Positions 13,526 through 39,043 of a DNA stretch of 48,349 nt are shown piece by piece. This stretch comes from a virus. The translations under genes and the position numbers were made by a program. The notes under the pieces were generated by a model, which was not told the origin of the DNA, made no database searches, and saw only the letters and a program-made list of their open reading frames with translations. Each line of letters opens with the position of its first letter. The first letter of the stretch is position 1. Where the stretch lies: the IMG/VR virus record IMGVR_UViG_3300037110_000132; one strand, written 5' to 3'.

Positions 13526-14407
13526 GTGAAAAAGTTCTTCAGTTACCTCACTCTGATCGTCGGGATGCTGTTCCTGACCTTCAACATCGGCTGCGGTCTG
13601 TTCAACCGACAGTACGTAGAGCCGGGATACGTGGGAGTGCGCGTCTACCTCCATGGCTCCAGCAAGGGTGTCGACCATGAAGTGGTCGGGGCTGGCCGCT
13701 ACTATGTGGGAATGAACGAGAAGCTCTACCTGTTCCCGGTCTTCCTGCAGAACTATAACTACACGCAGTCGGCCAACGAAGGCAGGGCTATGGATGAGTC
13801 GTTCTCGTTCCAGGACAAGCAGGGGATGACCATCAAGTCCGATGTCGGCATCAGCTACGCCTTCGACAAGAACCGGATCGATGATATCTTCACCCAGTTC
13901 CATTCTGGCCCTGACGAGATCACCAATGTGTTCCTCCGTTCTCTGCTGCGTGATGCCTTCAACCGTGCGGCTTCCACTCGTGAGATCCAGGACATCTATG
14001 GTCCCGGTAAGTCGGCCTTCGTCAACGAAGTCCAGGCTGATGTGCAGAAGAGAGCCGCTATCGTCGGCGTCAACGTCAAGAGCGTCCTGCTGATCAATGA
14101 ACTTCGACTCCCCGATCAGATCATCAAGGCCCTGAATGACAAGACCGCTGCGACTCAGAGAGCCATGCAATCTGAGAACGAACTCCGAGTGACCCAGGCT
14201 GAAGCTGCGAAGACTGTCGCCCAGGCTGAAGGATACGCCAAGGCTCTGCTGGTCAAGGGTAATGCTGAGGCCACCTACAACCGTCAGATCTCAGCTTCCA
14301 TCACTCCGGTCCTGGTCGACAAGATGAAGGCCGAGAAATGGGATGGCAAGCTGCCCCAGGTCCAGGGTGGTGGTACTCCGTTCATTAGTCTCGGTGGACT
14401 CAAGTAA
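13526..14407 (+). CDS. SPFH/band-7 (prohibitin/HflK/C-like) family lipoprotein
   Basis: Lipoprotein-type signal (LTFNIGCG). SPFH-like core followed by an Ala/Gln-rich coiled coil (AEAAKTVAQAEGYAKALLVKGNAEATYNRQ). GC-rich gene. Confidence 0.65.
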   Translation: MKKFFSYLTLIVGMLFLTFNIGCGLFNRQYVEPGYVGVRVYLHGSSKGVDHEVVGAGRYYVGMNEKLYLFPVFLQNYNYTQSANEGRAMDESFSFQDKQGMTIKSDVGISYAFDKNRIDDIFTQFHSGPDEITNVFLRSLLRDAFNRAASTREIQDIYGPGKSAFVNEVQADVQKRAAIVGVNVKSVLLINELRLPDQIIKALNDKTAATQRAMQSENELRVTQAEAAKTVAQAEGYAKALLVKGNAEATYNRQISASITPVLVDKMKAEKWDGKLPQVQGGGTPFISLGGLK

Positions 14408-14454
14408 CAATTCAAGTGGGTTAACAAGAGACAATTCAAGTGGGTTAACAAGAG
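14407..14454 (+). repeat. 24-bp perfect tandem direct repeat x2
   Basis: Unit acaattcaagtgggttaacaagag is repeated immediately after the SPFH stop codon. Confidence 0.9.
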
Positions 14455-14476
14455 GGGGAGCAATCCCCCTCTTTTC
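14453..14476 (+). terminator. Rho-independent terminator
   Basis: Stem aggggga/tccccct with a GCAA tetraloop, followed by cttttc. Confidence 0.6.
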
Positions 14477-14491
14477 ATATCTGGAGTTAGT

Positions 14492-14743
14492 ATGTCTTTT
14501 AAAACAATCTGGAAATTCTTGTTTGAGAGAGAACTTACTCATCATACTGGAGTGTGGGTCAGAAGATACCAGTGTAAATGTGGGAACCTGGAAGAATGGG
14601 CACACATGACTAGGGTATGTCAGGAATGTGGATATACGGATTCATTTGAGGAAGTCTCAGGAAGGTATGAATGGGATAGAAAAGGGAGTAAAATCCTCAA
14701 TCAAGTGTTTATTCTACATCCAGCGATGAGGGAGAAGAAATGA
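14492..14743 (+). CDS. Small Cys-rich zinc-ribbon protein
   Basis: 83-aa ORF with CKCGN...CQECGY. Confidence 0.5.
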   Translation: MSFKTIWKFLFERELTHHTGVWVRRYQCKCGNLEEWAHMTRVCQECGYTDSFEEVSGRYEWDRKGSKILNQVFILHPAMREKK

Positions 14744-14889
14744 GTATCGAAAATGCTGATCCTGTCGAATTGATTGATGGCCTATGGTATTACTGGGATG
14801 AGGTATGGTGCGATTGTTATGGTCCCTTCGCTACCGAAGAAATCGCACGTGAGGAATTACGCCAGTATTGTGTAGCGGAGGGGCTGTGA
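14740..14889 (+). CDS. Small hypothetical protein (49 aa)
   Basis: ATGA overlap with the upstream stop. Shine-Dalgarno gagggagaag. Below the ORF-track size cut-off. Confidence 0.4.
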   Translation: MSIENADPVELIDGLWYYWDEVWCDCYGPFATEEIAREELRQYCVAEGL

Positions 14890-15290
14890 CTAACAAGGAG
14901 GTCCTCGATCTGATCCTCGCCACTAAATCTAGAGAAGATGATCCCAGCTACGAGAACATGGATGTCTTTGTGGAATTTCTTGACTCCATCCTTGACGGTA
15001 TGCCGCTACCTTCCATTGATCGTCCTGCCATCTATCCCCACGAGTATCAGCCTTGGCTCACTAAGATGGAACAGTTTTTGGATGAGTTCATGGCAGTGGA
15101 CCCTCATCTCAGTTATTGGTTTGCTTGGATGCCTTATCGATCCTTGCTGAAGAGAGAGCGGGGTGGACCCTCCAAATGGTGTGTTTTCGTGGATGCTCAT
15201 GACGCGAAAGTCGAAAGAGAATTTCCAGAGGAACGTTGGCCGAAATTGAAAATTGCCTGGAGCAAAAATGAGAATAGAATTTCTGAATGA
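14886..15290 (+). CDS. Hypothetical protein (GTG start suggested; the ORF track uses TTG at 14868)
   Basis: In-frame GTG preceded by gcggagggg. Confidence 0.45.
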   Translation: MTNKEVLDLILATKSREDDPSYENMDVFVEFLDSILDGMPLPSIDRPAIYPHEYQPWLTKMEQFLDEFMAVDPHLSYWFAWMPYRSLLKRERGGPSKWCVFVDAHDAKVEREFPEERWPKLKIAWSKNENRISE

Positions 15291-15606
15291 GAGATTAATT
15301 GAACAGCAGGGTCTAACAGAGGCTGAGGTCTTAATCCTGGTAGAACTCCATGAGGAACGGGAGAGAATTTTTGATTTGATGACTGACACTGATGATCCTG
15401 ATCTCCTTCAGGAGTTAGCTGCCAAGGTGGAGACTGTGGAGTTTGCCCTCCAGAGGACCTGGAAATTTCCAGAAGATAGTAATTGGCATTGTTGGTGGTA
15501 TCAGGTGCCCAAGTGTTGCTGTCCCAAGCTCGACAACGCGGATAGATGGGGAACTAAGTATCGAATCTTCAATGGTAATTGCCCAGTTCATAGGATGAAA
15601 TCATGA
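15268..15606 (+). CDS. Hypothetical protein
   Basis: ATG at 15268 with Shine-Dalgarno ggagcaaaa. Acidic. CCCP Cys cluster. Confidence 0.5.
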   Translation: MRIEFLNERLIEQQGLTEAEVLILVELHEERERIFDLMTDTDDPDLLQELAAKVETVEFALQRTWKFPEDSNWHCWWYQVPKCCCPKLDNADRWGTKYRIFNGNCPVHRMKS

Positions 15607-16013
15607 TTATTTTCTTGCGTGACAAAAAAGGTAAAACTGTCGCTGAAGTTGAAATCACTAGACAGACTGGTGAGATTACGGGACCAGTGAGATCAGAATC
15701 CTATGATCTTCGAGAGCGAGAGCGTAGTAGGACTGGAGTGATCGCTGATATCGTAAAAGATCTTCATGTATCCATTAATATTCTTGAATATTCCAGGCTG
15801 CTCCTCAGGGTAATTGGCAAAGACCCAGGTGTTCTCTTTAACATCGCAATTCATCAGTTGATTGCGGATTTCTCTGAGTTGGATGAATTGCGAGGGTGGT
15901 ATTGGGAGATGTACTCTATGACCACTAATTCATACAATGAAGTCGTGAAGGAAGTTAGATATCTCTTCAAGATATTGGCCGAGAAATATGAGCTATTCGT
16001 AGTGGAGGACTAA
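15603..16013 (+). CDS. Hypothetical protein
   Basis: 136-aa ORF with ATGA overlap to the upstream gene. Confidence 0.5.
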   Translation: MIIFLRDKKGKTVAEVEITRQTGEITGPVRSESYDLRERERSRTGVIADIVKDLHVSINILEYSRLLLRVIGKDPGVLFNIAIHQLIADFSELDELRGWYWEMYSMTTNSYNEVVKEVRYLFKILAEKYELFVVED

Positions 16014-16014
16014 A

Positions 16015-16308
16015 ATGACGATGATTTTTCTACTGTTTCTCATCGGTTTAACACTCTTTTGTAGTTGGTCTCTTTCGGGATATATTGCAGCACTTCTTGG
16101 CAGGTATTTCCTACCAGAGAATCATCCTATTCGTATTGATAATAGGGAGGAGGCAAAATACGCTACCCTCTGTGGACCAGTTGCCCTCGTTTTGATTGTG
16201 GGTGCAATCATTATTCATAAAACTATTGGGCGCAGACCCCTACAGAGATTAGGGGATTTCTTCTATTCTCATTTTGATCAGCAATCCAAACCTGTTAAAA
16301 ACAAGTAA
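16015..16308 (+). CDS. Small membrane protein
   Basis: Two hydrophobic helices (IFLLFLIGLTLFCSW and LCGPVALVLIVGAIIIH). Confidence 0.5.
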   Translation: MTMIFLLFLIGLTLFCSWSLSGYIAALLGRYFLPENHPIRIDNREEAKYATLCGPVALVLIVGAIIIHKTIGRRPLQRLGDFFYSHFDQQSKPVKNK

Positions 16309-16327
16309 TTCTCACACGGAGAAATTC

Positions 16328-17320
16328 ATGTTGAAGCTAAATAAATCTCTCATCGTGGCAGCGTTATTGCTGATGGTGCCCCTCTTCGCTGGAAAAGGGG
16401 GCGGGGGTGGAAGTTTCAGTTCAGGCTCATCCAGTCGGTCGAGTTCCTTCTCGTCTAGTTCCTCATCGTCCAGGCCGAGCAGCTATTCGAGTCCTTCATC
16501 TTCTTCGAAGTCCAGTGGCTTAAGTTATGGCAGCTTCTCTTCGAAGCCCAGTGCGACTGCCACCGCAAGCAAATCTGGCGGAGGGAGTTTCTCTTCGACC
16601 AGCAAGTCAACTGCTTCGACTCCTTCCCAGCAAGCATGGGTGAGATCTCAGCAGTCCACTCAGGCTGCTGCCCAGTCCAAGGCTTCCTTGGCCCAGTTCA
16701 AGACCGCTTCCGTACCTCCCCCTTCGGCCAAGGTCGCTGCATCCCCAGTGTTCAGCAGGGTCTACACGACATCTGGTGGTACTTCCGCTCCACGTGTTAC
16801 CTACAACACTTATGTGATTCAGCGGCAGGGCTACTACAGCAGCTATCATCCCAATCCTTACGTCTATAATTACCGGCCCAGTTATGGTGCCTGGGATGCG
16901 ATGTTCATGTGGATGATGCTGGACAACATGAACAGCCAGATGTATTACAACCATCGCAATGACGCCGATTACCAGCAGTGGAGAATCGATGCCAACAAAC
17001 AGGCTCAGACTGACGCTGCGGTAGCGGCCAAATTGGCAGATATGGACGCCAAGGTGAAGGCTCTGGAGGCTGCCAAGACCCCAGTTGATCCTGCCTACAT
17101 GCCCCAGGGAGTTGATCCCAGTATCGCCATGGCCCCCGATTTTGCTGCGGCAAATCTGACTCAGGAAGCTCCTGTTTCAGAACCTGCGCCAGAAGCCTCA
17201 GGTGTCAATGGATGGGTAGTCGCAGTGATCATTGCCCTCACCATTGGTATTATCGCCTTGGGCATCTATATTGTCAATCGCCCTCATCGTGGTCCTTATA
17301 AATCCCGTTACGATCTGTAG
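16328..17320 (+). CDS. Secreted or membrane-anchored protein with a Ser-rich low-complexity region
   Basis: ATG with Shine-Dalgarno acggaga. Signal peptide LIVAALLLMVPLFAG, a long poly-Ser/Gly tract, and a C-terminal TM helix WVVAVIIALTIGIIALGIYIV. Confidence 0.55.
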   Translation: MLKLNKSLIVAALLLMVPLFAGKGGGGGSFSSGSSSRSSSFSSSSSSSRPSSYSSPSSSSKSSGLSYGSFSSKPSATATASKSGGGSFSSTSKSTASTPSQQAWVRSQQSTQAAAQSKASLAQFKTASVPPPSAKVAASPVFSRVYTTSGGTSAPRVTYNTYVIQRQGYYSSYHPNPYVYNYRPSYGAWDAMFMWMMLDNMNSQMYYNHRNDADYQQWRIDANKQAQTDAAVAAKLADMDAKVKALEAAKTPVDPAYMPQGVDPSIAMAPDFAAANLTQEAPVSEPAPEASGVNGWVVAVIIALTIGIIALGIYIVNRPHRGPYKSRYDL

Positions 17321-17328
17321 AGGGAATC

Positions 17329-18096
17329 ATGGACTTTCATTTTTTCTCAAAACCGAAGGTAACTGAGTTTGAGTTGGTCACATTGATCTCTGATGGTGAG
17401 AAGTGGGAAATAGAGCGTAAGGATGCTCATCTGCCCAAGGGTCTAAGAATTGGAGCAATTGCCACTATGCCCGAATCGGTCTTCATCGCGGCTCAGGCTT
17501 TCGGCTCTGTAATTCCCAGTAGAACCGGTGATTTTGGGATCAAGAGCATCAGCGCTATTCACGTGCCGTTAGTGCCAGGAATGAAGGTCTATCGAGCCTA
17601 CCTCACCGTCTGTGGTGATAATGACAACTGCAGTTTCATTCAGGCCACTGTTCAAATCAGGGAAGAAACGTCTGATAAAGTGGAGAAGTTGATCGAACTA
17701 GCTTACTTCACGACTGTCTTTACTGACTACCCATCCAGTGAAGAAGATTGGAACAACTACCTTGGAGAAGAAGGAATTGGTTCCATTAACTTCACTGATA
17801 ACGATGGTCATGAATACCATCGGGTCACTGGCAGGGGGGAACATTGCAGATGTCTTACCGCTGAAGAGAAGGGAATCATCACCCCGGCTGGTGATAAGGG
17901 CTGGGCCTCTGAACTCAGTTTCCATGTTTACGAACGAGAGCTTCAAGATGGATCACCGGAATTCTGCACCATCGAAGTGTTCGAAGTCAAAAGCAGCAAT
18001 GTTATGAACGAAGAATCAGGTGGTGTCCGATTCATGGTCGGAATTCCTTTACCCCTTGATATCGTTCTCATCCAAACCAACTCCATCAGGAGCTAA
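17329..18096 (+). CDS. Hypothetical protein
   Basis: 255-aa ORF. Confidence 0.5.
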   Translation: MDFHFFSKPKVTEFELVTLISDGEKWEIERKDAHLPKGLRIGAIATMPESVFIAAQAFGSVIPSRTGDFGIKSISAIHVPLVPGMKVYRAYLTVCGDNDNCSFIQATVQIREETSDKVEKLIELAYFTTVFTDYPSSEEDWNNYLGEEGIGSINFTDNDGHEYHRVTGRGEHCRCLTAEEKGIITPAGDKGWASELSFHVYERELQDGSPEFCTIEVFEVKSSNVMNEESGGVRFMVGIPLPLDIVLIQTNSIRS

Positions 18097-18097
18097 C

Positions 18098-18823
18098 ATG
18101 TCGTTCAAGAAGCTGTTTGCAATGCTCACCGGCCAGGGTCAGGCCGCGATTGATAGCGCCACCATGGCGCTTGAGGCCGCGAATCCTGAGGTCGCCATCA
18201 AGGTCGACAAGCAGGAGATCGAGGACAACCTCCGCACCATCGCTATCTCTCTGGCCCAGGCTGAAGAGAAGCTGAAGGCTGAAGAAGCTGAAGTCGTGGT
18301 GACCCAGGCCAAGATCGACAAGGACCTGAAGGCCGCTGAGATTCTGATTGGCCAGGGTAACGAGGACAAGGCTAATATCCTCATGTCCGAAGTGGAGAAG
18401 CTGAAGAACACCATGGCCCACGAGAAGCGTGAGCGGGATTCTGCCCTGCTGATCGTCAAGAACTTCCACGAAGCCAAGGACAAGCTGCTCAAGACCCTCA
18501 ACGAATATGACGAGAAGTCTAGTGAGGTCGTCAGTGTCCTCCAGGAAGCCAAGTCGGAGAGGGAATCGGCCAAGGCCATTCGTGAATCCGAAGCCCTGTC
18601 CAGTAGTCAGACCAATCTGACCAACGTCAATTCTTCGCTGGCTTCCATGACCGCCATGGCTGCGAAACTCCGCGCCCAGGCTGATGTGGATCGCACCATG
18701 ACCGATCTCAACAAGCCGGTCGCTGAGAAAGATTCCGATATCGCTGCGGCTCTGGCCCAGGTCGAAACCGGAAGTGCAACAAAAGAAACCGCTACGGAAC
18801 GCCTTGCGCGTCTTCGTGGCTAG
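18098..18823 (+). CDS. PspA/IM30-like coiled-coil protein (tentative)
   Basis: Shine-Dalgarno caggagc. N-terminus MSFKKLFAMLTGQ...ALEAANPE resembles the PspA/Vipp1 start. Extended K/E-rich coiled coil. GC-rich. Confidence 0.35.
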   Translation: MSFKKLFAMLTGQGQAAIDSATMALEAANPEVAIKVDKQEIEDNLRTIAISLAQAEEKLKAEEAEVVVTQAKIDKDLKAAEILIGQGNEDKANILMSEVEKLKNTMAHEKRERDSALLIVKNFHEAKDKLLKTLNEYDEKSSEVVSVLQEAKSERESAKAIRESEALSSSQTNLTNVNSSLASMTAMAAKLRAQADVDRTMTDLNKPVAEKDSDIAAALAQVETGSATKETATERLARLRG

Positions 18824-18963
18824 AGGTTCCACGCAAACCCTAAACAACCTCTCGTATCCTGCGTGATGGGGTGGCCACTCTATAACGTTGAAGAGCTAGT
18901 AATATTAGTCCACTGCTAGTGTTACGAGTCAAAGTTGGGCCTAATTAACCGAGGGTGTGGAAA

Positions 18964-19036
18964 CAGTGTTTGGTCTATTGGAAGGGCACCGAGCCGCCAA
19001 GGTTCGGGGGTGGAGGTTCGAATCCTTCAACACTAC
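18964..19036 (+). tRNA. tRNA-like gene with an apparent 9-nt anticodon loop
   Basis: T-arm ggagg-ttcgaat-ccttc. Acceptor cagtgtt/aacacta (6 of 7 paired). Stem ccgag/ttcgg encloses loop ccgccaagg. An alternative perfect acceptor partner, tagtgtt, lies 47 nt upstream. Confidence 0.3.
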
Positions 19037-19049
19037 CAGGAGGTGCAAT

Positions 19050-19355
19050 ATGGATTTCTTCACTATTTTAGACCCTGACGATAGTTGTACTGGACGTTTA
19101 TATCTCATGGTGTCACAAAAGGGACGATTTTCCTCGTCCGTTCGCGATCCTACTGATCTAGAAGTAAACCTTCTCTCCGGCCAGTTAGAGCAGCCCACTG
19201 AAGGATATTTCATTGTCTTCCGCAACTTCTTTGGTTATTATATAATCATTGAAGACTCAAATACTCATGAAGTTCACCATACATTAACTCCGTCCCAGAT
19301 TTGTATTGTAAACCAAATAATCAAAGCTGCGAGTGAAGCCTTGAAGGGGAAGTGA
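19050..19355 (+). CDS. Hypothetical protein
   Basis: ATG at 19050 with Shine-Dalgarno ccaggaggtg. Confidence 0.5.
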   Translation: MDFFTILDPDDSCTGRLYLMVSQKGRFSSSVRDPTDLEVNLLSGQLEQPTEGYFIVFRNFFGYYIIIEDSNTHEVHHTLTPSQICIVNQIIKAASEALKGK

Positions 19356-19549
19356 TGGACTATGAATTTGATTTTGTCAAAGTTGTGCTTGAAACCCTAG
19401 TCAGTATTGATAATTCTATCGATCATGCCTACCCTCTTAATAATTTTGATGAGGATCGAGCGCACGTTGCTCTAGCAGCTATTCGGGGAAAGATTAAGAC
19501 CCTACGTAGCGTAGCCAGTAATATAACTTTGAAACCCGAGATAAAATAA
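19352..19549 (+). CDS. Hypothetical small protein
   Basis: 65-aa ORF with an ATGA overlap to the upstream gene. Confidence 0.45.
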   Translation: MMDYEFDFVKVVLETLVSIDNSIDHAYPLNNFDEDRAHVALAAIRGKIKTLRSVASNITLKPEIK

Positions 19550-20184: not shown

Positions 20185-20270
20185 AAAAAGGGTTTTCTCT
20201 TATCGGCCTCCTTTCTATCCTTGTCATTCTGGGAATTTTTCTCCCCTTCTCAAAATCGAGGAAATCATGA
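20181..20270 (+). CDS. Tiny ORF encoding a truncated prepilin-like N-terminus (MKKGFSLIGLLSILVILGIF...)
   Basis: 29 aa. ATGA overlaps at both ends. The sequence parallels the N-terminus of the next gene. Confidence 0.3.
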   Translation: MKKGFSLIGLLSILVILGIFLPFSKSRKS

Positions 20271-20545
20271 AGGGTTTTAATCTTATCGAACTGTTGCTAG
20301 TTCTGGCAATTCTAGGAATCATTTCTGCTGTTGCCATTCCGGCTCTCATGACCCAGTATGATCGCAACAACCGGAAACCCGGCTCTGTCATGCTTTGGAC
20401 CTCTGATGAATTGGTCCAGAAATGGGGTGCTCCCGATGCTGTGGTGAACGCTAATGATCTGTCCTTCCTGGAATTCAGGAGTCATGGGGTGGTCATTACC
20501 CTCAAAGATGGAAGGGTTATCAGTATTACCCCAAGGAATTTTTAA
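20267..20545 (+). CDS. Prepilin-type N-terminal cleavage/methylation domain protein (type IV pilin or pseudopilin-like)
   Basis: MKGFNLIELLLVLAILGIISAVAIPAL matches the class III signal and N-methylation motif (G-F-x-L-I-E). Confidence 0.55.
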   Translation: MKGFNLIELLLVLAILGIISAVAIPALMTQYDRNNRKPGSVMLWTSDELVQKWGAPDAVVNANDLSFLEFRSHGVVITLKDGRVISITPRNF

Positions 20546-22287: not shown

Positions 22288-22404
22288 AGGGGTATAGCTC
22301 AGTTGGTCAGAGCGTCTGGCTTATCACTTTCCATGAAGTTGGTGGTTCGTGCAAAGTATTCCACACCCAGAAGGTCGTAAGTTCGAGCCTTACTGCCCCT
22401 ACCA
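22288..22404 (+). tRNA. tRNA, probably Val(TAC), interrupted by a 40-nt insertion in the anticodon loop
   Basis: Acceptor aggggta/tgcccct. D-arm gctc-agttggtca-gagc. Perfect anticodon stem tctgg/ccaga spanning 47 nt. T-arm gtaag-ttcgagc-cttac. CCA encoded. Loop ctT|ACac is obtained if the insert sits between 34 and 35. Confidence 0.6.
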
Positions 22405-22546: not shown

Positions 22547-24469
22547 ATGGCATTAATGGATCGTTATCAGAATCGCCAGATCAGTTCCAAGAAAGAAGAA
22601 TTAACTCTACAGGAATACCTGGATCTCTGCAAAGCCGACCCAACCACCTACGCCAATGTAGCAGAGCGGATGCTAATGGCCATTGGTGAACCCGAAGTAA
22701 TCGATACTCACCTGACTGACAGGAATTCCAGGATCTTCGCTAACAAGATGATCAGGGTCTATCCCGCTTTCAAGGACTTTTATGGCATGGAAGAAGTGAT
22801 TGAGTCTATCGTCGCATATTTCCGACATGCTGCTCAGGGGTTGGAAGAGAAGAAACAGATCCTTTATCTTCTCGGTCCTGTCGGTGGTGGTAAGTCCTCC
22901 CTGGCCGAGGGCCTTAAGTATCTGCTCCAAAAGGTCCCGTTCTTTGCCATTAAGGGTTCTCCCGTCAATGAGTCACCCCTTGGGCTATTTGATGTGGTGA
23001 ACGATGCCAAGGCGTTAGAAGAGGAATATGGCATTCCCAGTCGGTATCTTGGTAGTATTTTGAGTCCTTGGGCGGTCAAGCGTCTGGAAGAGTTTGATGG
23101 TGATATCTCCAAGTTCAAGATCATCAAGCTTTTCCCTTCTACCTTGTCTCAGGTCGCTATCTCCAAGACGGAACCCGGAGATGAAAACAACCAGGATATT
23201 TCTTCACTGGTTGGCAAGGTTGACATCAGGAAGCTGGAAAAGTACAGCCAAAATGATACCGATGCTTATTCTTACTCCGGTGGTCTGTGCCTATCTAATC
23301 AGGGCATCTTGGAATTCGTTGAGATGTTCAAGGCTCCGATTAAAGTACTGCACCCTCTGCTGACTGCTACCCAAGAAGGAAACTACAAGGGAACTGAGGG
23401 CTTTGGTGCTATTCCGTTCAACGGTTTAGTCCTGGCTCACTCAAATGAAGCTGAGTGGCAGACGTTCAGAAATAACAAAAACAACGAAGCCTTCCTGGAC
23501 CGCATCTACATTGTCAAGGTTCCTTATAGCCTTCGTTTCACTGATGAAACTAGAATCTATCAGAAGCTGCTGGATAACTCTAGCTTGAGCGCAGCACCCT
23601 GCGCTCCTGATACCCTCAAGATGCTGGCCCAGTTCTCTGTCCTCTCTAGACTAAAGGTTCCAGAAAATTCCAGCGTCTTCAGTAAGATGAGGATCTATGA
23701 TGGTGAGAACCTCAAGGATATCGATCCCAAGGCAAAGAGCTATCAGGAATACAAGGACTTTGCTGGTGTGGATGAGGGAATGATCGGTCTGTCCACCCGG
23801 TTCGCCTTCAAGATTCTGTCCAAGGTGTTCAACTATGACCACAATGAGATCGCTGCCAATCCAGTCCATCTCATGTACATCCTGGAGACTCAGATCGGAC
23901 AGATGCAATTCCCGACTGCCACTGAGGACATGTATCGCAAGTACATCAAGGAGTACCTCTCACCCAAATACGCGGAATTCATTGGCAAAGAGATCCAGAC
24001 TGCATACCTCGAAAGCTATGGTGAGTATGGACAGAATATCTTCGATCGCTATGTGGTCTATGCTGACTTCTGGATCCAGGATCAGGAATTCAGAGATCCC
24101 AACACTGGCGAGATGCTGGACCGGGCTGCGCTCAACGAGGAACTGGAAAAGATCGAGAAACCAGCTGGTATCTCTAATCCGAAGGACTTCCGTAATGAGG
24201 TAGTCACATTCGCACTCAGAGCGAAAGCCAAGCACGAGGGCAAGAACCCTTTGTGGACCTCTTATGAGAAACTCCGTGCAGTAATCGAGAAGAAGATGTT
24301 CTCTAATACTGAGGAATTGCTCCCTGTCATTTCCTTCAACACCAAGGCAAGCGCGGACGATCAGAAGAAACACAAAGACTTCTTGGACCGGATGATCGCT
24401 AGGGGTTACACTGAGAAGCAAGTCCGTCTGCTGTGTGACTGGTACCTGCGCGTAAGGAAATCTTCATGA
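22547..24469 (+). CDS. prkA: PrkA/YeaG family serine protein kinase (AAA+ N-domain)
   Basis: 640 aa. The N-terminus aligns with E. coli YeaG (TLQEYL...YANAAERLLMAIGEP...YPAFEEFYGMEDAIEQIV...AAQGLEEKKQILYLLGPVGGGKSSLAE). Walker A motif GPVGGGKS. Confidence 0.85.
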   Translation: MALMDRYQNRQISSKKEELTLQEYLDLCKADPTTYANVAERMLMAIGEPEVIDTHLTDRNSRIFANKMIRVYPAFKDFYGMEEVIESIVAYFRHAAQGLEEKKQILYLLGPVGGGKSSLAEGLKYLLQKVPFFAIKGSPVNESPLGLFDVVNDAKALEEEYGIPSRYLGSILSPWAVKRLEEFDGDISKFKIIKLFPSTLSQVAISKTEPGDENNQDISSLVGKVDIRKLEKYSQNDTDAYSYSGGLCLSNQGILEFVEMFKAPIKVLHPLLTATQEGNYKGTEGFGAIPFNGLVLAHSNEAEWQTFRNNKNNEAFLDRIYIVKVPYSLRFTDETRIYQKLLDNSSLSAAPCAPDTLKMLAQFSVLSRLKVPENSSVFSKMRIYDGENLKDIDPKAKSYQEYKDFAGVDEGMIGLSTRFAFKILSKVFNYDHNEIAANPVHLMYILETQIGQMQFPTATEDMYRKYIKEYLSPKYAEFIGKEIQTAYLESYGEYGQNIFDRYVVYADFWIQDQEFRDPNTGEMLDRAALNEELEKIEKPAGISNPKDFRNEVVTFALRAKAKHEGKNPLWTSYEKLRAVIEKKMFSNTEELLPVISFNTKASADDQKKHKDFLDRMIARGYTEKQVRLLCDWYLRVRKSS

Positions 24470-25698
24470 TCATTGATCGAAGATCGGATAGCAAGCATAA
24501 AAGCTCCGTTAACCGAAGTAGATTCATCCAACGCTTTAAAGGCCAGATCAAGAAAGCTGTCTCTGATACAATCAACAAGGACAGCATCAAAGATCTGGCT
24601 GGCAAGAAGATTGGGATTTCCAATAGAAGCATCAAGGAACCACGATTCAGGACTGGGCCTGGAGGGATATCAGAGGATGTCCATCCAGGTAATGATAAAT
24701 ATCATTCAGGTGAAGAAGTAGAAAGGCCCTATGGCGATGATGGCATGGGATCTAGCGCCAGTCCTGATGGAGAGGGTATGGACGAATTCGTCTTCACCCT
24801 TTCTAGAGAAGAATTCCTGGATATCTTCTTTGAGGAACTGGCACTTCCTAATCTGACTAAGAAGTATTTGGCCAGTTTAAAGGAATTCAAGCGGGTAAGG
24901 GCTGGGATTAGTAATGCCGGAACTCCTAATAATATCAATCTCGTCCGGACTTTCAGGAGCGCCACAGGCCGAAGGGTAGCCATCGGTGGTCCTTATGCCA
25001 CTGAATTAGCAGAATTAGAGGAGAAACTAGCTGAAGTCACAGATGAAGAAGAATTCACATTCCTAACAGAAGAAATAGAGAGGGTCAGGACTCGGATTAG
25101 TCACATTCCCTGGATTGATACCTTCGACCTCCGGTATAATTATCATGATAAGGTTCCTCAGCCTTCGGCTCAGGCTGTTATGTTCTGCTTGATGGATGTA
25201 TCTGGATCAATGGACGAGGAGAAGAAGAACATCGCTAAGCGATTCTTCACCCTCTTATATCTGTTTTTGACTCGTACCTACGAGAAAACTGATATCGTCT
25301 TCATTCGCCATCATGTTCATGCCGAAGAAGTGGATGAGGATACTTTCTTCCATTCTCAGGAAACAGGTGGAACTATTGTTTCCTCAGCATTGAAGCTGAT
25401 GCTCCAAATCATCGAAGAGCGTTACAACAACGGTCAATGGAACATCTATGGTGCACAGGCTTCAGATGGTGACAATTGGTTCGAAGATTCCAATGGGTGT
25501 ATTCAGCTATTGGAAGATCAAATTCTTAAGTTGGTCCAGTATTTCGCGTATGTAGAGATTGCTGAGCGCCCACAAAGCTTGTGGGTTGAATATGAATCAA
25601 TCACGCCGAAATATGAAGGGCTGTTTGCGATCAGACGGATTAATAGCGCGGCTGATATCTATCCAGTGTTCTGTGATCTCTTTAAGAAGCACGAGTAA
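24466..25698 (+). CDS. yeaH: YeaH/YhbH (DUF444) vWA-like protein
   Basis: 410 aa. Stop/start overlap with prkA. MIDAS-type DVSGSMDE motif. Canonical partner of PrkA. Confidence 0.75.
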   Translation: MIIDRRSDSKHKSSVNRSRFIQRFKGQIKKAVSDTINKDSIKDLAGKKIGISNRSIKEPRFRTGPGGISEDVHPGNDKYHSGEEVERPYGDDGMGSSASPDGEGMDEFVFTLSREEFLDIFFEELALPNLTKKYLASLKEFKRVRAGISNAGTPNNINLVRTFRSATGRRVAIGGPYATELAELEEKLAEVTDEEEFTFLTEEIERVRTRISHIPWIDTFDLRYNYHDKVPQPSAQAVMFCLMDVSGSMDEEKKNIAKRFFTLLYLFLTRTYEKTDIVFIRHHVHAEEVDEDTFFHSQETGGTIVSSALKLMLQIIEERYNNGQWNIYGAQASDGDNWFEDSNGCIQLLEDQILKLVQYFAYVEIAERPQSLWVEYESITPKYEGLFAIRRINSAADIYPVFCDLFKKHE

Positions 25699-25700
25699 CT

Positions 25701-33012: not shown

Positions 33013-33018
33013 TACCCT

Positions 33019-33094: not shown

Positions 33095-33130
33095 TTGACA
33101 CACAATAAGAAGGAGTTAAAAGCATGTAAA

Positions 33131-33276: not shown

Positions 33277-33313
33277 AAAAATTTCGCATAGAATTGACTT
33301 CTAGATTTCCTTC

Positions 33314-33322
33314 TGTTATAAT
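33314..33322 (+). promoter_or_regulatory. Extended -10 element cTGtTATAATtgg
   Basis: Follows the tRNA 3' end. A gaggt Shine-Dalgarno and the ATG at 33340 follow. Confidence 0.4.
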
Positions 33323-33339
33323 TGGTGACTGAGGTTCTC

Positions 33340-33996: not shown

Positions 33997-34178
33997 TTCG
34001 TTTGGTCCCGCTCCTCTTCTTGGTTCAGGTCTACATCACCACGTTGGTGGCAGTTGATCTGCTGCTCCTGAGCTACTTTTGGGCGGGATTCTTCTTCATT
34101 GTCGGGATGATTAATCTCAGGATTATCGATCTCGCCTGTCACCCTAAGGAATCCAAACATGATTCTCTGTCGAAATGA
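33993..34178 (+). CDS. Small membrane protein
   Basis: ATGA overlap with the upstream gene. Hydrophobic LLFLVQVYITTLVAVDLLLLSYFWAGFFFIVGMI. Confidence 0.45.
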   Translation: MIRLVPLLFLVQVYITTLVAVDLLLLSYFWAGFFFIVGMINLRIIDLACHPKESKHDSLSK

Positions 34179-34371
34179 TTACCAGAGAAAATCCAGCTAT
34201 CTACTGCGCTGGCTCATGGGTCCTGCCTCAATTGTGGACGGTGTTATACGAACCGTGACCCTGGGATTTGTTTCTTCCGGATTGGAGTATCAGTGCGCTA
34301 TGTGCATCTTGAAAAACGAGTCGGTGAATGGTCAAATCATCGATGTTGAGGAGGCCGAGCATGAAAAATGA
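34159..34371 (+). CDS. Hypothetical small protein
   Basis: 70-aa ORF. Confidence 0.4.
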   Translation: MILCRNDYQRKSSYLLRWLMGPASIVDGVIRTVTLGFVSSGLEYQCAMCILKNESVNGQIIDVEEAEHEK

Positions 34372-34564
34372 GGAACTGATTGGCAAACGGGTTCAGTGGC
34401 AAGAAGTGATCAGCCGGGTCAAGGGAACTTTCAAGACCTGCAGGGGAAAGGTCGCTGAGGTTCGGGGTCAGGAAATCAAAATTGACAAAGTGTGGCGTTG
34501 GCTTCCCCGTTTGGAGAATCTCGCAGTGGTCGAAAAGAAGAAAAGGGGTAGACCGTGTTCATAA
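34361..34564 (+). CDS. Hypothetical small protein
   Basis: ATG with Shine-Dalgarno gaggaggccgagc. Confidence 0.4.
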   Translation: MKNEELIGKRVQWQEVISRVKGTFKTCRGKVAEVRGQEIKIDKVWRWLPRLENLAVVEKKKRGRPCS

Positions 34565-34905
34565 CGATGTGCAAATCGAAGATTCATCGTGCGACCGTCA
34601 CTGGAGCGAAGCTGGATTATACCGGAAGCATTACCATCGATACTAATTTGATGGAAGCTGCAGGAATTCTCCCGTTCGAAATGGTACATATCAACAGCAT
34701 GTCGAATGCGGCTCATTGGGAAACCTATGCAATCCCCGGAGGGGATGGGGAGATTACCCTAAATGGCTGTCCCGCCAGACTCTTCATGCCAGGGGATGAA
34801 GTTGTGATCCTTTCGTTGGTACAAGTTACACCCGAAGAAGCCAGAACCTTAGCTGACCGGATGCATAGAACCGTCCAGGTGGACAAACAGAACCATAGGT
34901 GGTGA
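34555..34905 (+). CDS. panD: Aspartate 1-decarboxylase (pyruvoyl-dependent)
   Basis: Aligns with E. coli PanD across its length: KIHRATVT, the Gly-Ser self-cleavage site YTGSITID, AAGILPFE, TYAIPG and NGCPARLFMPGDEVVI. Start is GTG at 34555 or ATG at 34567. Confidence 0.8.
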   Translation: MFITMCKSKIHRATVTGAKLDYTGSITIDTNLMEAAGILPFEMVHINSMSNAAHWETYAIPGGDGEITLNGCPARLFMPGDEVVILSLVQVTPEEARTLADRMHRTVQVDKQNHRW

Positions 34906-35271
34906 ATGAAAGCAAAAGACCTGCTCAACAAAGAGATCTCTTGGACTGAGGAGTTCGATCCTTATCAGGGGATTTATACAACTAAATCGGGCCGAGTGGT
35001 TGCGGCCCAGGGCAGGAACATCATGGTAGATGGCAATTGGTTGTGGCTTCCGAGTCTTCGTAGGATCAAGGCGATAAGTTATACCTTCACCATCGAAGAA
35101 CCAACCATTAAGTATCAGGTCGTTCACAGTCTGAACAAGAACATTGAATCCCTTAATGTGGTTGCTGACGAGAGAATCACCATTCATGAAGAGGAACAGG
35201 ACCATAAGGATCCAAATTGGGTGCAAATTACCACCTATGTGCCCCATACAACGATCAAAATTTTCAGCTGA
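34906..35271 (+). CDS. Hypothetical protein
   Basis: 121-aa ORF starting 1 nt after the panD stop. Confidence 0.5.
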   Translation: MKAKDLLNKEISWTEEFDPYQGIYTTKSGRVVAAQGRNIMVDGNWLWLPSLRRIKAISYTFTIEEPTIKYQVVHSLNKNIESLNVVADERITIHEEEQDHKDPNWVQITTYVPHTTIKIFS

Positions 35272-35279
35272 GGTATACT

Positions 35280-36008
35280 ATGGACAGAGATAAGAAATAC
35301 GAAACCCATCCTTCGTTCGGTATGATCAGCTTCTCTCGCATCCACAGTGGTGGCAAGGGACCCCGGCTGTTCCAGTCTTTCACCGATAATAGCACCTTTA
35401 TTAGTTGCAAAATCAAAGGGGCCGAAGTCGGTCATGATCTTGGCCGTGATTGGGTCCATGGCAATAAGACCATGATCGAGGTTTATATCTCGGCTTCCCA
35501 GTTCGCTGAGCTTCTGACCTCAATGAATATTGGGGATGGGGTTCCCTGTACCATCAAACAGGTCGCTGGCGTGGAAATTCCCAAGGCTCCGCTTTGTGAA
35601 ACAGTGGCGTCTAAGGTCCGCAATACTTTCAAGAACGAAGTGAAAGACAAGATCAACGATCTCCAGAAAGTGGCCAAGGAGATCGAAACAATGCTGGCTG
35701 GTTCCAAGCTGAGCAAGGAGAATCAGAAACAATTGAACTGGAAAATTCAGGAGTTGGCTGGTTTGTTCTCCGATCACGCCCCATTCATGCTTGATTCGTT
35801 CGAAGAGGCAGTCGAGAAGACTGTCGTCGGGGCCAAGGCTGAATGTGACGCATGGCTCACCCATAATATCATGAGAGCGGGACTTGAAAGTTTGCTGAAT
35901 CAAGCACCCTCGCTCAGTAACAATTCGAATCCCGCTCTGGAGTGCAAGGACGATATCGCGCATGGCCTCTCGCAGGACAGCATCGAGAAGATCATGGGGT
36001 GGGAATGA
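35280..36008 (+). CDS. Hypothetical protein
   Basis: ATG at 35280 preceded by gaggtatact. The ORF track starts at 35217. Confidence 0.5.
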   Translation: MDRDKKYETHPSFGMISFSRIHSGGKGPRLFQSFTDNSTFISCKIKGAEVGHDLGRDWVHGNKTMIEVYISASQFAELLTSMNIGDGVPCTIKQVAGVEIPKAPLCETVASKVRNTFKNEVKDKINDLQKVAKEIETMLAGSKLSKENQKQLNWKIQELAGLFSDHAPFMLDSFEEAVEKTVVGAKAECDAWLTHNIMRAGLESLLNQAPSLSNNSNPALECKDDIAHGLSQDSIEKIMGWE

Positions 36009-36418
36009 GATATACTGAGCCGAACATCACACGCTTGGAACCGAACGAGATCTTCGTCTTCGGTTCTAACGAGGGCGGGAAACATGGTAAGGGGGCCGCT
36101 CTGACCGCCAAGAGATATTTTGGCGCTATTCAATACCAGCCAGAGGGTCTTATGGGTCAGAGCTATGCCCTGCCGACTGTCGATGAAGAGATTCGCAACA
36201 AGCTTCCTCTTGATCAGATCAAGCGATATATTGGCAATTTCATCGAGTGCGCCAAGGCTCATCCCGAATTGACTTTCCTCGTCACTGAGATTGGTTGTGG
36301 GCTGGCTGGCTGGAAGGTTGGCTATATCGCTCCGCTCTTCAACAATTTCAAACCTCTTCCGGATAATATAGTTTTACCCTACAGTTTCCATCTTAAACCA
36401 GAATTTCAGGAGAAATGA
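36005..36418 (+). CDS. Conserved small-domain protein with an FGSNxxGxHGKGAA motif (function unassigned)
   Basis: ATGA overlap with the upstream gene. Motif IFVFGSNEGGKHGKGAALTAKRYFGA...GQSYALPT...VTEIGCGLAG. Confidence 0.45.
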   Translation: MRYTEPNITRLEPNEIFVFGSNEGGKHGKGAALTAKRYFGAIQYQPEGLMGQSYALPTVDEEIRNKLPLDQIKRYIGNFIECAKAHPELTFLVTEIGCGLAGWKVGYIAPLFNNFKPLPDNIVLPYSFHLKPEFQEK

Positions 36419-36532
36419 AATGTGGTATGCCCTTGGAGTTACTTCTTTTTGTTTGATGGTGGCTGTAAGCTGCGCTGGCTGGCCCTCTTTCATTACTATC
36501 AACCATTATCACAACGATGATAAGGAAAAGTA

Positions 36533-36826
36533 ATGTTCACGCCCTGGGATAATGACAAAGAGATTCCTTCCCCAGTATTCATCAATAAACTTGGTACAAA
36601 ATGGTGGTTGGATCCCAGTAGTACAGACTATCTTCATAACGAGGATGTCCATGGGACTAGGATCTTGGATGCCAATGTATTCTTCACTGAAACCAGGGAT
36701 GCCTCTAGGGCTCGTGTCATTGTCTACAAGGACCAAGTTGTTCATGAGAGTCAATCCCTAGAAGCGACCGGTCGCTTCATTGACATCATGAAGAGGATGA
36801 AGCGTGATGGGACTCTGGATAAATAA
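36533..36826 (+). CDS. Hypothetical protein
   Basis: 97-aa ORF. Confidence 0.5.
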   Translation: MFTPWDNDKEIPSPVFINKLGTKWWLDPSSTDYLHNEDVHGTRILDANVFFTETRDASRARVIVYKDQVVHESQSLEATGRFIDIMKRMKRDGTLDK

Positions 36827-36843
36827 TCAAGGGAAGAAGATTT

Positions 36844-39043
36844 ATGATAAGTAAAGCTGATAGGCTAGAATGGGGAATAGACCTTATTCCTGAAACATTC
36901 TATCTAATCAAAATCAAAAATTGGTCGCAGAGTGGTGATCCCTGGCCCTGCTTATTTCCCACTCTGGCCCCGTCAGTCCCATACGGTCATCAGCGGTCAT
37001 CAGCTTCGTTCGAATCAGTACCTTCTGGTGCGGGTCTACAATGATCATGAAGCTGCTGCTAACTGGGACAAGGCAGTCATTAAGAAGGCCAGCCATGATT
37101 CGAAGAGCGAAGTGGCTAAGCCCGAGCAGCTTACCACCGGCCAGCTACTGATCATCAAAGGCACCGAAGTATCCTTCTACATTCCACCGACTGGAATCGA
37201 AGTGGTCGCGGATCGTGTTGGCAACTTCGTCCGTGAAGCGGTCACCTTGGAACGGATGGAATTCTGCATCCTGAAGGAAGAGCGTGGTGAGAAACGCTAC
37301 GTTCAGGGTCCTGATGTTGTATTCCCCTCTCCCACGGAAACCTTCGTGGAAATGAATGGGGAAATGAAGTTCAAGCCCATCGAACTCACTCCTATTTCGG
37401 GCCTGTACATCAAGGTTATCGCGGATTACACGGAAGGTGGGACCGAATACAAGAAGGGTGACGAACTCTTCATTACTGGCAACCAGCAAGCCATTTACTA
37501 CCCCCGTCCTGAACACAATATCATCAAATATGGGGATCGGACCGTTCATCATGCGGTTGCGGTCCCCAGGGGTGAGGGCCGGTATGTGCTGAACCGCGAA
37601 ACCGGTGAAGTGGGTCTGATTAAGGGACCCCTGATGCTCCTGCCCGATCCGCGTCGGGAAGTGATCGTGCGTCGGGTGCTGGATGCGAATCAAGTGTCTC
37701 TCATGTATCCGGGGAACCAGCAAGCCCTAGAAGTGAACAAGCTACTCAAGGCTGAACTGGAATCCTCCCCCAAGCAGGAAGCTACCTTCTCTCGTGGACT
37801 GATCGCTTCGGCTGCTTCGGCTATGAACACCTTCGCGGGAGATGCGCTGACTCGTAGCACCAGCTATAATCCTCCTCGCACGATCACCCTGGACACCAAG
37901 TATGACGGAGCCGTGGCGATCAGCCTTTATTCCGGATTCGCTGTGCTGATCGTCAACAAGTCTGGTGACAGAAAGGTCGTCGAAGGTCCCGCCGCGATTC
38001 TGCTGGAATACGACGAGACTCTTATGCCCATGGCTCTGTCCACCGGCAAGCCCAAGACCAACAACACCCTCATTCACACCGTCTACCTACAGGTCAAGAA
38101 CAACCGGATCAGCGACAAGATCATGGGAGTGGAAACCAAGGATCTGGTGCGAGTGGATATCACTCTGGCCTACCGGGTCCATTTCGAAGGCAATGATCCG
38201 CTCAAATGGTTCCAGGTCGACAACTACGTTCACCATCTGGTGGAACATGGCCGGTCCATGCTGCGCAACGCGGTCAAGCAGGTGGGGATCGAGGAATTCT
38301 ACAACAACCCGATCGCCATGGTGCGTGATACCCTGCTGGGTCCCGCCTCTGACAATGAAAGTCGCAGAGGACTCGTGTTCAAGGAAAATGGCATGCGGGT
38401 CTATGATGTCGACGTCCTGATGGTCGAGATCGAAGATTCGAAGATTGCCAGTCTGCTCGAAACCGCCCAGGAGGAGGTCATCGCTACTACCCTGGTGATC
38501 GCTGGCAAGGAACGGGAACTGCAGAAGGTGATGCGGGTTGAGGAAATCAACCGCAACATCGAGAAGGAACAGGCTATCACCGTGGCGACCAGGGTTGACC
38601 TGGAAATCGAGAAGGCCAAGAATCAGCTGAAGAAGAGATTGGAAGAACTCACTGGCAACGCCCTGGTAGAATCCTCCCGCCTCCAAGCTGAAGAAGATCG
38701 ACTGGCTCTGGTGGACAACATTTCCACTGCGGAATTAGCCCGTCGCAAGGCTGAGAAAGATCAGGAGATCGAATTCACTCGTCAGGAGATCGAACAGGAA
38801 CTGAAGCGGCTTCATGGTGAGACTGAGGAAATCGTCCAGCGGTCCACTGCAGTCAGTGAGAAGCTCATTTCCGCGCTCCAGGCTTTCGGGGACAAGGCTC
38901 TGCTGGAGAAGGTGGCTGAAGCGATGGCCCCGCTGGCTATCCTGCGTAATAGTGGAGTGGTGGAAGCTTTCACCGGTCTGCTGAAGGGAACCCCCTACGC
39001 GGATATCCTCCTCAAGAGCACTGTGGCCAAAGTCATCAAATAA
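36844..39043 (+). pseudogene. Major vault protein (MVP)-like gene, split by a frameshift at a 10-bp tandem duplication; the downstream frame 36932-39043 is intact
   Basis: MVP-repeat-like segments (compare RYVLNRETGEVGLIKGPLMLLPD with human [24 protein letters not shown]). Shoulder/SPFH-like block ITLAYRVHFEGNDP (compare LQLAYNWHFEVNDR). Long C-terminal cap-helix-like coiled coil. Deleting one copy of GGTCATCAGC (36985-37004) joins the ATG at 36844 (frame 1) to the 703-aa frame 2. Confidence 0.6.
36985..37004 (+). repeat. 10-bp perfect tandem duplication GGTCATCAGC x2 that causes the frameshift
   Basis: Read directly from the sequence. Confidence 0.95.

Follow-up and report, generated by a model that had tools for sequence, protein, structure and literature searches.

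Two complete envelope cassettes of accessory genes and a vault-protein gene cut short at its 5' end, probably independent of one another, on a tRNA-dense contig of likely huge-phage origin

Here we examine three GC-rich genes on a contig catalogued as viral (IMG/VR record IMGVR_UViG_3300037110_000132; a complete JGI contig, 48,349 bp, 46.4% GC), the whole of which we refer to as the window. They encode an SPFH/Band-7 protein that is probably a lipoprotein, a PspA-like coiled-coil protein and a major vault protein (MVP) homologue. A sequence-only reading had placed the three under one membrane-scaffold theme, suggesting that they came from a cellular donor and may act together during infection. 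All three open reading frames (ORFs) are present where that reading had located them (Table 1), and the content is two intact accessory envelope cassettes, built around the SPFH and PspA-like genes, and one truncated vault-protein gene. On balance, we favour three independent accessory cassettes on a tRNA-dense contig, most likely a huge-phage fragment, with the theme being a grouping of protein families and not a system. If so, the content is mostly ordinary, as SPFH cassettes are widespread in phages and MVP homologues of bacteria and phages have already been reported.

Evaluating the linkage of the three genes revealed that they are separated both in the window and at related loci. In the window, 3.7 kb lie between the SPFH and PspA-like genes and 18 kb between the PspA-like and MVP genes, and these intervals hold tRNA genes, terminator-like hairpins and unrelated ORFs. 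At related loci, where we searched flanks of up to 5-20 kb as far as each contig allowed, a tblastn search with every window protein gave no further trio gene around 80 viral SPFH loci (1.36 Mb), and tblastn also found none around 80 bacterial, 4 phage and 5 metagenomic MVP loci and neither SPFH nor MVP near the PspA-like gene in three related contigs (L005 from Logan; L010 and L011 from IMG/VR). Neither Band_7 nor MVP occurs among the Pfam-annotated genes of six bacterial PspA-like loci from four genomes. Moreover, the PspA-like and MVP proteins have no recognizable signal sequence and the SPFH protein is predicted to be exported.

This arrangement bears on whether the trio forms one functional membrane-scaffold toolkit taken from cells that would jointly remodel membranes or build a compartment during infection. 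All three proteins do come from oligomer-forming scaffold families, their genes are among the five of 54 that are richest in GC at third codon positions (GC3), functional pairs of PspA and Band-7 proteins exist in bacteria, and, among the 50,697 phage records that we searched, the PspA-like gene has no tblastn match and MVP has three, such that finding both together with SPFH in 26 kb is unusual. Nevertheless, we consider a joint toolkit very improbable, as the genes do not adjoin one another, none of 179 related loci (80 SPFH, 89 MVP and 10 PspA-like) has any two of them in its fetched flanks, prediction puts the SPFH protein in the periplasm but the other two in the cytoplasm, the MVP gene is truncated and has no Shine-Dalgarno (SD) sequence, and the real conserved partners are a small ORF with two transmembrane (TM) segments, DUF2491 and a Ser-rich TM protein. 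The proposal that the three act together thus found no positive evidence in our analyses. A precedent for functional coupling of PspA and SPFH proteins is the pspA-ydjGHI locus of B. subtilis, where the SPFH protein YdjI recruits PspA to the membrane (Scholz et al. 2021, PMC8581546), but that locus is one operon and both of its proteins are cytoplasmic, whereas the window genes sit in separate cassettes 3.7 kb apart, the SPFH protein carries an export signal and we found no linking locus. We give next to no weight to the fuller version, in which a periplasmic SPFH cage, a cytoplasmic PspA/ESCRT-III-like polymer recruited via the trans-membrane DUF2491 pair and a vault-type shell shortened at its N-terminus cooperate in this phage; were it true, it would mean a virus-encoded ESCRT-III/SPFH/vault membrane-remodelling toolkit, in bacteria, that builds or maintains a membrane-associated compartment during a long huge-phage infection. 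More likely than cooperation of three cassettes is that the three-gene PspA-like module alone acts as a phage-encoded membrane-repair system.

The composition of the three genes, from which a cellular donor had been suggested, can be accounted for in more than one way. Their GC contents (0.545-0.563 vs 0.464 for the window) and GC3 values confirm that they are GC-rich, though to call the background AT-rich overstates the case for a window of 46% GC. Across 54 ORFs (median GC3 0.475, standard deviation 0.097), the SPFH (0.724), PspA-like (0.711) and MVP (0.656) genes rank second, third and fifth (z 2.0-2.8), but two further ORFs, 10699-11163 (0.735) and 9085-9948 (0.670), match them in GC3. The excess involves both C- and G-ending two-fold codons, and the steps in GC fall on gene boundaries. 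Comparison with homologues revealed that the SPFH gene exceeds the median GC3 of its flanking ORFs in all five other phages inspected (z 0.7-2.9), and that the PspA-like gene exceeds its DUF2491 neighbour in each of the four genomes with the module (0.711/0.496, 0.455/0.345, 0.606/0.452 and 0.646/0.529). For MVP the excess over flanking genes averages +0.06, as against +0.18 in the window, among 26 low-GC loci, to which this comparison was limited because ORF calls in high-GC genomes pick wrong frames; the closest MVP relatives have a GC3 of 0.63-0.68. The nearest relatives of the SPFH and PspA-like genes are viral or phage-like contigs.

For the SPFH and PspA-like genes, gene-specific codon bias fits these patterns better than a recent cellular origin, because the GC3 excess recurs in their homologues while the DUF2491 operon partner has none, and high GC3 probably goes along with strong expression of structural proteins made in abundance. 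A fairly recent capture is plausible for the truncated MVP gene only, as GC steps up right at the breakpoint of the truncation and high GC3 is found in the closest relatives too. The broader alternative, in which each of the three genes is a compositional island gained recently and separately by horizontal transfer from a GC-richer donor, without implying a functional link, would account for GC steps that fall on gene boundaries, at the MVP breakpoint included, for the GC3 of the closest MVP relatives, and for bacterial members of the PspA-like family being from GC-rich Alphaproteobacteria. We think this unlikely, given the recurrence of the SPFH excess in five of five unrelated phages, the small average excess of MVP elsewhere and the background GC3 of the co-inherited DUF2491 neighbour in four of four genomes. 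In addition, the PspA-like protein is approximately 25% identical to bacterial and 43-49% to viral members of its family, at which distance synonymous sites are saturated, and a shared donor signature cannot have survived in the module because the genomes are only 43-45% identical in protein. The three genes have unrelated origins, and composition alone is a poor indicator of foreign origin here, as scaffold-protein genes are GC3-enriched relative to their neighbours in several genomes.

Turning to the individual cassettes, the SPFH assignment is borne out by matches to Pfam Band_7 (PF01145; 70.8 bits, cut-off 23.6, E 1.9e-19, residues 31-227) and to PHROG_200, annotated 'lipoprotein' (E 2.2e-64, residues 6-288). 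Homologues with 38-44% identity were found by tblastn in 592 of the phage records, 567 of which cover at least 80% of the protein, and the hosts of these phages include Staphylococcus, Pseudomonas, Bacillus, Klebsiella, Burkholderia and others. In IMG/VR contigs, 304 further stretches match the protein, with identities no higher than 48%, and an exact-peptide scan of viral contigs revealed no close SPFH relative. A strong SD sequence ('taaggag') precedes the gene. Because Cys23, at the end of the hydrophobic N-terminus, aligns with the lipobox Cys in four of the five phage homologues aligned, the SPFH domain is predicted to be exported and is probably lipid-anchored, outside the cytoplasm.

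The SPFH gene has a partner, as a small hydrophobic ORF of 45-77 aa lies directly before it in all five unrelated phages inspected (T7-like ProddE, Ruegeria phage V10, Myxococcus phage Mx1, N4-like Piffle and Burkholderia phage Maja), and in four of these five ORFs two TM segments enclose the motif P-[WFT]-L-[IL]-[SN]. The window counterpart holds LPWLLNGED centrally between two hydrophobic segments, has a GC3 of 0.655 and weakly matches PHROG_34880. Terminator-like hairpins stand on both sides of the window pair, which follows a tRNA-Gln gene, much as in Piffle, whose SPFH cassette comes after several consecutive tRNA genes and is flanked by annotated terminators on the opposite strand. The pair is an ordinary member of a cassette common across phage families, and the window protein resembles known phage SPFH lipoproteins of PHROG_200 (Burkholderia phage phi1026b gp48, Stenotrophomonas phage Piffle gp43 and the HflC/HflK-family lipoprotein of Maja) over its full length, in its N-terminal signal and lipobox Cys, and in its upstream small hydrophobic ORF, mostly with two TM segments. 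It differs from them in a non-canonical lipobox context (F-N-I-G-C), an insertion of 5-8 residues after the Cys and the distance to its nearest relatives. By analogy with other SPFH proteins, the exported, lipid-anchored protein may form a cage- or ring-shaped oligomer at the periplasmic side of a membrane, where the small TM protein would be its partner, and such an assembly could organize or shield a patch of the host envelope during infection.

The PspA-like protein required remote methods, since profile searches, on which the sequence-only assignment might have been expected to fall, gave no match in Pfam at E <= 1 and noise only in NCBIfam and in a phmmer search of PDB. A single relative with 44% identity in a word-indexed database, used with the window protein in HMMER, led to 77 representatives of about 250 aa that align end to end, and a profile of 73 relatives retrieves 233 proteins, mostly from Alphaproteobacteria (Rhodospirillales, Roseomonas, Azospirillum and Siccirubricoccus). 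All 120 of the matches listed are without a precomputed Pfam domain, and PF04012 is matched weakly by 2 of 73 family members (best E 0.0022); source names vary among 'chromosome segregation ATPase' (JGI), 'phage shock protein A' and 'PspA/IM30 family protein'. Two AlphaFold models (pLDDT, the predicted local distance difference test score, 66.7 from 2 sequences and 79.2 from 73, with the hairpin above 90) show an N-terminal helix, a helical hairpin (30-85/89-172) and shorter C-terminal helices. Foldseek against 350,542 PDB chains ranked Vipp1/PspA structures in all of the top 15 and top 13 places for the two models (E 5e-4 to 5e-2), and E. coli PspA (4WHE) superposes on the models at 1.3-1.8 A over 117-121 positions. 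The structural side of the PspA-like assignment thus stands, in that a hairpin fold is predicted.

Profile-profile alignment points the same way, as hhalign matched the family to that of E. coli YjfJ (E 6e-4, probability 28%) in the C-terminal half only, with the two in register up to a common terminal 'S..D.LARL' motif. The score of 31.2 exceeds all 100 column shuffles (12.4 +/- 2.1, maximum 19.3) and the reversed profile (17.6), for a YjfJ family that is annotated PF04012 and whose profile is shallow, the homologue search having returned only enterobacterial sequences with at least 86% identity; E. coli PspA by itself gave no hhalign signal. Against these results stands the possibility that the protein is a generic coiled coil not homologous to PspA, whose likeness is that of any long helical hairpin. 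The missing Pfam, NCBIfam and PDB sequence matches and the JGI label of its relatives are consistent with this, as is a search of PDB sequences with the 73-relative profile, in which syntaxin and ROCK outrank Vipp1/PspA (E ~0.1), so plain hidden Markov model (HMM) searches cannot tell homology from coiled-coil bias. Such an explanation is improbable in light of a Foldseek ranking held by Vipp1/PspA with two independent models, an hhalign score far above its shuffle null, and a gene that adjoins the same DUF2491 and DUF350 genes as yjfJ does, though in a different order. From fold search, hhalign and gene context together, we consider homology to the PspA/ESCRT-III superfamily likely, which leaves the PspA assignment without support at the Pfam level yet not failing outright; of the looser claim, that the protein is the PspA equivalent of a Yjf-type module, we are more confident still.

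That gene context is a three-gene module (16274-18823) in which a Ser-rich TM protein is followed by a DUF2491 (YjfK-type) protein and then the PspA-like protein. The first protein has a signal/TM segment, a Ser-rich low-complexity region, a conserved 'GAWD...QQWR' segment with a coiled coil and a C-terminal TM segment, and is about 50% identical to the product of the same-position gene in L010 and L011 (PHROG_26986, E 2e-6). By BLASTP (E 1.5e-14) it matches the N-terminal half (residues 31-275) of a Rhodospirillales protein of 520 aa, the C-terminal half of which is DUF2491, and because of this match we read phage-like contigs as carrying the bacterial fused protein (TM/Ser-rich plus DUF2491) as two genes. 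The DUF2491 gene has its own SD sequence ('agaggg'), and its product is 31-36% identical to that of the gene directly before the PspA-like gene in L005, L010 and L011. Gene order is kept across all three genes in L010 and L011, and in L005 the DUF2491 and PspA-like pair lies behind a gene for a proline/serine-rich protein with a C-terminal TM segment.

Bacterial neighbourhoods offer close parallels to this module. DUF2491 and DUF350 lie directly upstream of the family member in four of four alphaproteobacterial genomes examined, as separate genes in three and fused in Siccirubricoccus. In the triad seen in Rhodospirillales 69-11, Azospirillum agricola and Siccirubricoccus deserti, a protein with TM, Ser/Gly-rich and DUF2491 parts is followed by DUF350 and a coiled-coil protein of about 255 aa, the last belonging to the same PspA-like family, and the first two window genes correspond to the two halves of that fused protein; the window differs in the low identity (about 25%), in the split and in the absence of a DUF350 detectable by Pfam. 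Where bacteria would carry DUF350, just before the module, the window has an ORF (16015-16308, +) for a 97-aa protein with two TM segments, which has no Pfam match and a low GC3 of 0.357. E. coli has the order yjfJ (PspA family), yjfK (DUF2491) and yjfL (DUF350), and YjfJ-family pspA operons with DUF350, DUF1190 and DUF2491 have been described (Ravi et al., 10.1101/2020.09.24.301986). Compared with the E. coli yjfIJKLMC neighbourhood (Ravi et al. 2024), the window likewise has a PspA-type hairpin protein adjoining DUF2491, the C-terminal 'S..D.LARL' motif of YjfJ and a membrane-spanning partner. It differs in that the order is reversed, with the PspA-like gene last, no DUF350, DUF1190, CesT/Tir-like YjfI or polyamine genes are detectable, the PspA-like protein misses the PF04012 threshold, BLASTP finds no similarity of the window DUF2491 protein to YjfK despite their common Pfam family, and the module is carried by phage-like contigs.

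We read this module as a phage version of the bacterial YjfJ-type PspA membrane-stress neighbourhood, our confidence applying to the PspA-equivalent role. In such a module, the first gene would specify a bitopic, Ser-rich envelope protein, the second a cytoplasmic DUF2491 protein and the third a divergent PspA/ESCRT-III-like hairpin that might polymerize on the inner leaflet of the cytoplasmic membrane. The DUF2491/TM pair may recruit or regulate it, and the polymer could keep the membrane sealed and energized during phage replication. The module has no tblastn match among the 50,697 phage records. Our literature search found no paper on phage-encoded PspA, and, as far as the literature and our search of phage records show, a Yjf-type PspA module is undescribed on phages. 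If our explanation is right, some large phages may come with a counterpart of the host's 'phage shock' machinery for membrane maintenance, and the module would offer a small, testable handle on the Yjf/DUF2491 system.

The MVP-like assignment holds as well, though the gene is truncated at its 5' end, which the sequence-only reading had missed. Its product matches Pfam MVP_shoulder (PF11978; 87.5 bits, E 8.7e-25) and Vault_3 (36.3 bits, E 6.3e-9), both above cut-off, and aligns by phmmer with rat MVP (E 1.5e-16, residues 212-632 to rat 341-776), a stretch that spans the cap-helix coiled coil (rat residues 647-776). Its architecture of MVP repeats, SPFH-like shoulder and cap-helix coiled coil is shared with bacterial and phage MVPs and with rat and human MVP (PDB 4V60, 4HL8); a Nannocystis MVP homologue matches Pfam Band_7 across the shoulder region (E 5e-6), in line with the SPFH-like nature that had been suggested for it. 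Bacterial relatives of about 830 aa account for at least 200 matching stretches in a one-genome-per-species collection (47-53% identity), from which we fetched 80 loci that include Myxococcota, Cytophagales, Riflebacteria, Vulcanimicrobiota, Anaerolineae and metagenome-assembled genomes (MAGs) binned to the candidate phyla radiation. The matching phage records are huge phages of 462 kb and 735 kb (42-45% identity), the two 735-kb records giving identical matches; one 215-kb IMG/VR contig has 48% identity, and the closest relatives lie on five metagenomic contigs (65-72%). We know of no evidence that any bacterial or phage MVP forms vaults. Homologues in bacteria (Sokolskyi 2019, 10.1101/872010) and phages (Santos et al. 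2023, 10.1101/2023.11.10.566534) have been described, from which the window copy differs in its missing N-terminus and SD sequence.

The truncation is apparent from several sides. All 88 relatives with a readable N-terminus (80 bacterial, 3 phage and 5 metagenomic; median length of relatives 833 aa) have at least about 105 further N-terminal residues, and about 106 are absent from the window protein. Homology nevertheless runs upstream of the first possible start to an in-frame stop, where the window reads 'IGRRVVIPGP' against 'FGRRVVIPGP' in relatives, with no start codon or SD sequence. DNA similarity to contigs L092, L093, L095 and L097 begins at about 36920 (approximately 12 nt before the start), preceded by AT-rich unrelated sequence, and GC steps from 0.43-0.44 to 0.50-0.58 at the junction. 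The start has no SD sequence, whereas most other window genes, including the SPFH, DUF2491 and PspA-like genes, have one. We therefore take this as a 5'-truncated copy, since homology extends to the stop, the relatives are all longer and the SD is absent. The missing N-terminus is not encoded in the window by tblastn or HMM search in six frames; a split gene or an intron was rejected, as the segment was found nowhere in the window. From the length of the roughly 55-aa repeats in the rat structure, the missing part would correspond to about the first two repeats (R1-R2), which form the waist of rat vaults.

Most probably the MVP gene is a remnant, or a fragment whose expression is poor, and not a shell-builder. 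It may have been captured or rearranged with loss of its first 106 or so codons and its ribosome-binding site, and a fairly recent capture via illegitimate recombination is plausible. Whether the 703-aa protein is nonetheless made and functional, as an open half-vault or cup without the waist-forming N-terminal repeats or as a decoy for host MVP, appears doubtful. The intact 2.1-kb ORF, its conserved shoulder and cap-helix, a high GC3 like that of other presumably well-expressed genes and a -10-like 'tagaat' upstream speak for it, but the SD sequence is absent in a genome where most genes possess one, the N-terminal residues are kept in every readable relative, and homology that reaches beyond the only possible starts to a stop codon is a mark of truncation and not of a designed short form. 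Rfam at the gathering threshold found no vault RNA in the window, only tRNAs, and no TEP1 or vPARP (PARP) domain occurs among the approximately 30 window proteins scanned with Pfam, the remaining small ORFs being unscanned. There is no synteny around the MVP gene in L001, L002, L009, L093 or the 80 bacterial loci. Among the MVP loci themselves, those of a Magasanikiibacteriota MAG (L071, 8001-10139; GC3 0.89 vs flank median 0.45) and a Saccharibacteria MAG (L088, 8001-10112; 0.64 vs 0.32) contrast far more extremely with their flanks than does the window gene, suggesting either that they were transferred very recently or that mobile or phage DNA was assigned to the wrong bin.

As for the contig itself, indirect signs make it probable that the window is a fragment of a large (huge) phage genome. 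ARAGORN found 17 tRNA genes, each standing alone amid small ORFs that are mostly co-directional, to which Rfam adds three matches, giving approximately 20 tRNA genes in 48 kb. Most ORFs scanned have no Pfam family, such that ORFans predominate; HNH-type genes are present, and several ORFs match PHROG families, among them that at 35217-36008 (+), whose strong match to PHROG_6452 (E 7e-42; a phage family with function unassigned) is further evidence for a phage origin. Two of the gene modules recur in IMG/VR viral contigs of 10 kb and 221 kb. We find it quite unlikely that the contig is instead a piece of a bacterial chromosome, plasmid or other non-viral element with ordinary cellular envelope-stress genes. 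The PrkA-YeaH-SpoVR, PspA-like, DUF2491 and MVP genes are usually cellular, and 48 kb pass without a hallmark virion or packaging gene, but the singly dispersed tRNA genes, the ORFan majority, the HNH genes together with PHROG_200 and PHROG_6452, and modules common to viral contigs, one of them of 221 kb, all argue for a phage, as does the fact that the only MVP relatives among phage records are three huge-phage records of 462-735 kb. Megablast of positions 13000-19500 against the phage records gave no match. PADLOC-DB returned no meaningful match for the SPFH protein, the two-TM ORF, the Ser-rich protein, DUF2491, the PspA-like protein or MVP; a reading of the cassettes as defence systems was rejected on that basis.

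Several points weigh against our preferred reading of independent cassettes on a huge-phage fragment. No capsid, terminase or other phage hallmark, virion or packaging gene was found in the window. The SPFH lipobox (N-I-G-C) is non-canonical. The MVP ORF stays open for 703 codons with high GC3, odd for an old pseudogene, and it could be translated from GTG 36932 without an SD sequence. We infer selection on codon bias from sequence and for a contig with no assigned host. Finally, though the trio is not co-located at the related loci examined, cooperation in this particular genome may occur, and partnerships of PspA with Band-7 proteins are known in bacteria (PMC8581546; Ravi et al., 10.1101/2020.09.24.301986).

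Table 1. Features of the window discussed in the text, with positions counted from its first nucleotide.
Feature	Position	Strand	Basis or remark
tRNA-Gln	13099-13175		tRNA call
Terminator-like GC-rich hairpin	13197-13220	+	pattern scan: 10 pairs, 7 G-C; between tRNA-Gln and SPFH cassette
Small two-TM membrane protein, 86 aa	13253-13513	+	ORF list; upstream partner of SPFH
SPFH/Band-7 protein	13526-14407	+	predicted N-terminal signal peptide and lipobox-like Cys
Terminator-like hairpin closing SPFH cassette	14454-14470	+	pattern scan
Ser-rich TM protein, module gene 1	16274-17320	+	true start probably internal ATG 16328
DUF2491 (YjfK-type) protein, module gene 2, predicted cytoplasmic	17329-18096	+	Pfam DUF2491, E 9.6e-11
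PspA-like (YjfJ-like) helical-hairpin protein	18098-18823	+	last module gene, 1 nt past DUF2491 stop
MVP truncation junction	36905-36931	+	in-frame TAA 36905-36907, then 8 codons homologous to MVP relatives
5'-truncated bacterial-type MVP homologue, 703 aa	36932-39043	+	Pfam, phmmer, relatives
Further tRNA match	4618-4686		Rfam; missed by ARAGORN
Further tRNA match	7527-7636	+	Rfam; missed by ARAGORN
Further tRNA match	22288-22401	+	Rfam; missed by ARAGORN
ORFs with common N-terminal pattern (starts)	371, 1384, 2148, 3285, 6095, 29468(-), 30980(-), 41157, 42587, 44916		
ORFs of possible auxiliary metabolism	34555-34905, 40402-40866, 20267-20545, 41157-42590		

Beyond the cassettes, the window holds a complete triad (22547-27224, +) of PrkA (AAA_PrkA plus PrkA, E 3e-171), YeaH/DUF444 (E 3e-164) and SpoVR/YcgB (E 1.5e-170), which is a conserved bacterial stress/starvation kinase module and has no meaningful PADLOC match. 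Two of the further tRNA genes, those at 7527 and 22288, may be intron-containing or otherwise interrupted, because the whole 71-position Rfam model is stretched over about 110 nt in each. Among the remaining ORFs, translations alone suggest an N-terminus resembling PanD aspartate decarboxylase, a protein like dCMP/cytidine deaminases (HCE...C..C) and an N-terminus similar to that of type IV pilins. By Pfam, a protein of 477 aa also has a C-terminal GNAT acetyltransferase domain, and the group has the look of auxiliary metabolic genes. In the product of the GC3-rich ORF at 9085-9948 (+), the peptides KFNEP and HYNIA are repeated in tandem, and its PHROG matches are all weak. At least ten otherwise dissimilar ORFs open with the N-terminal pattern M-K/E-L-x-L/F-x-A-x-I/V-K (for example MKLHLKAKIKDN and MELCLKAHIKKS), which could be a tag for targeting or processing that they have in common or could mark a multigene family, and many of them are preceded by a 'gttaaaat', 'gttataat' or 'gttatcct' box and an SD sequence.

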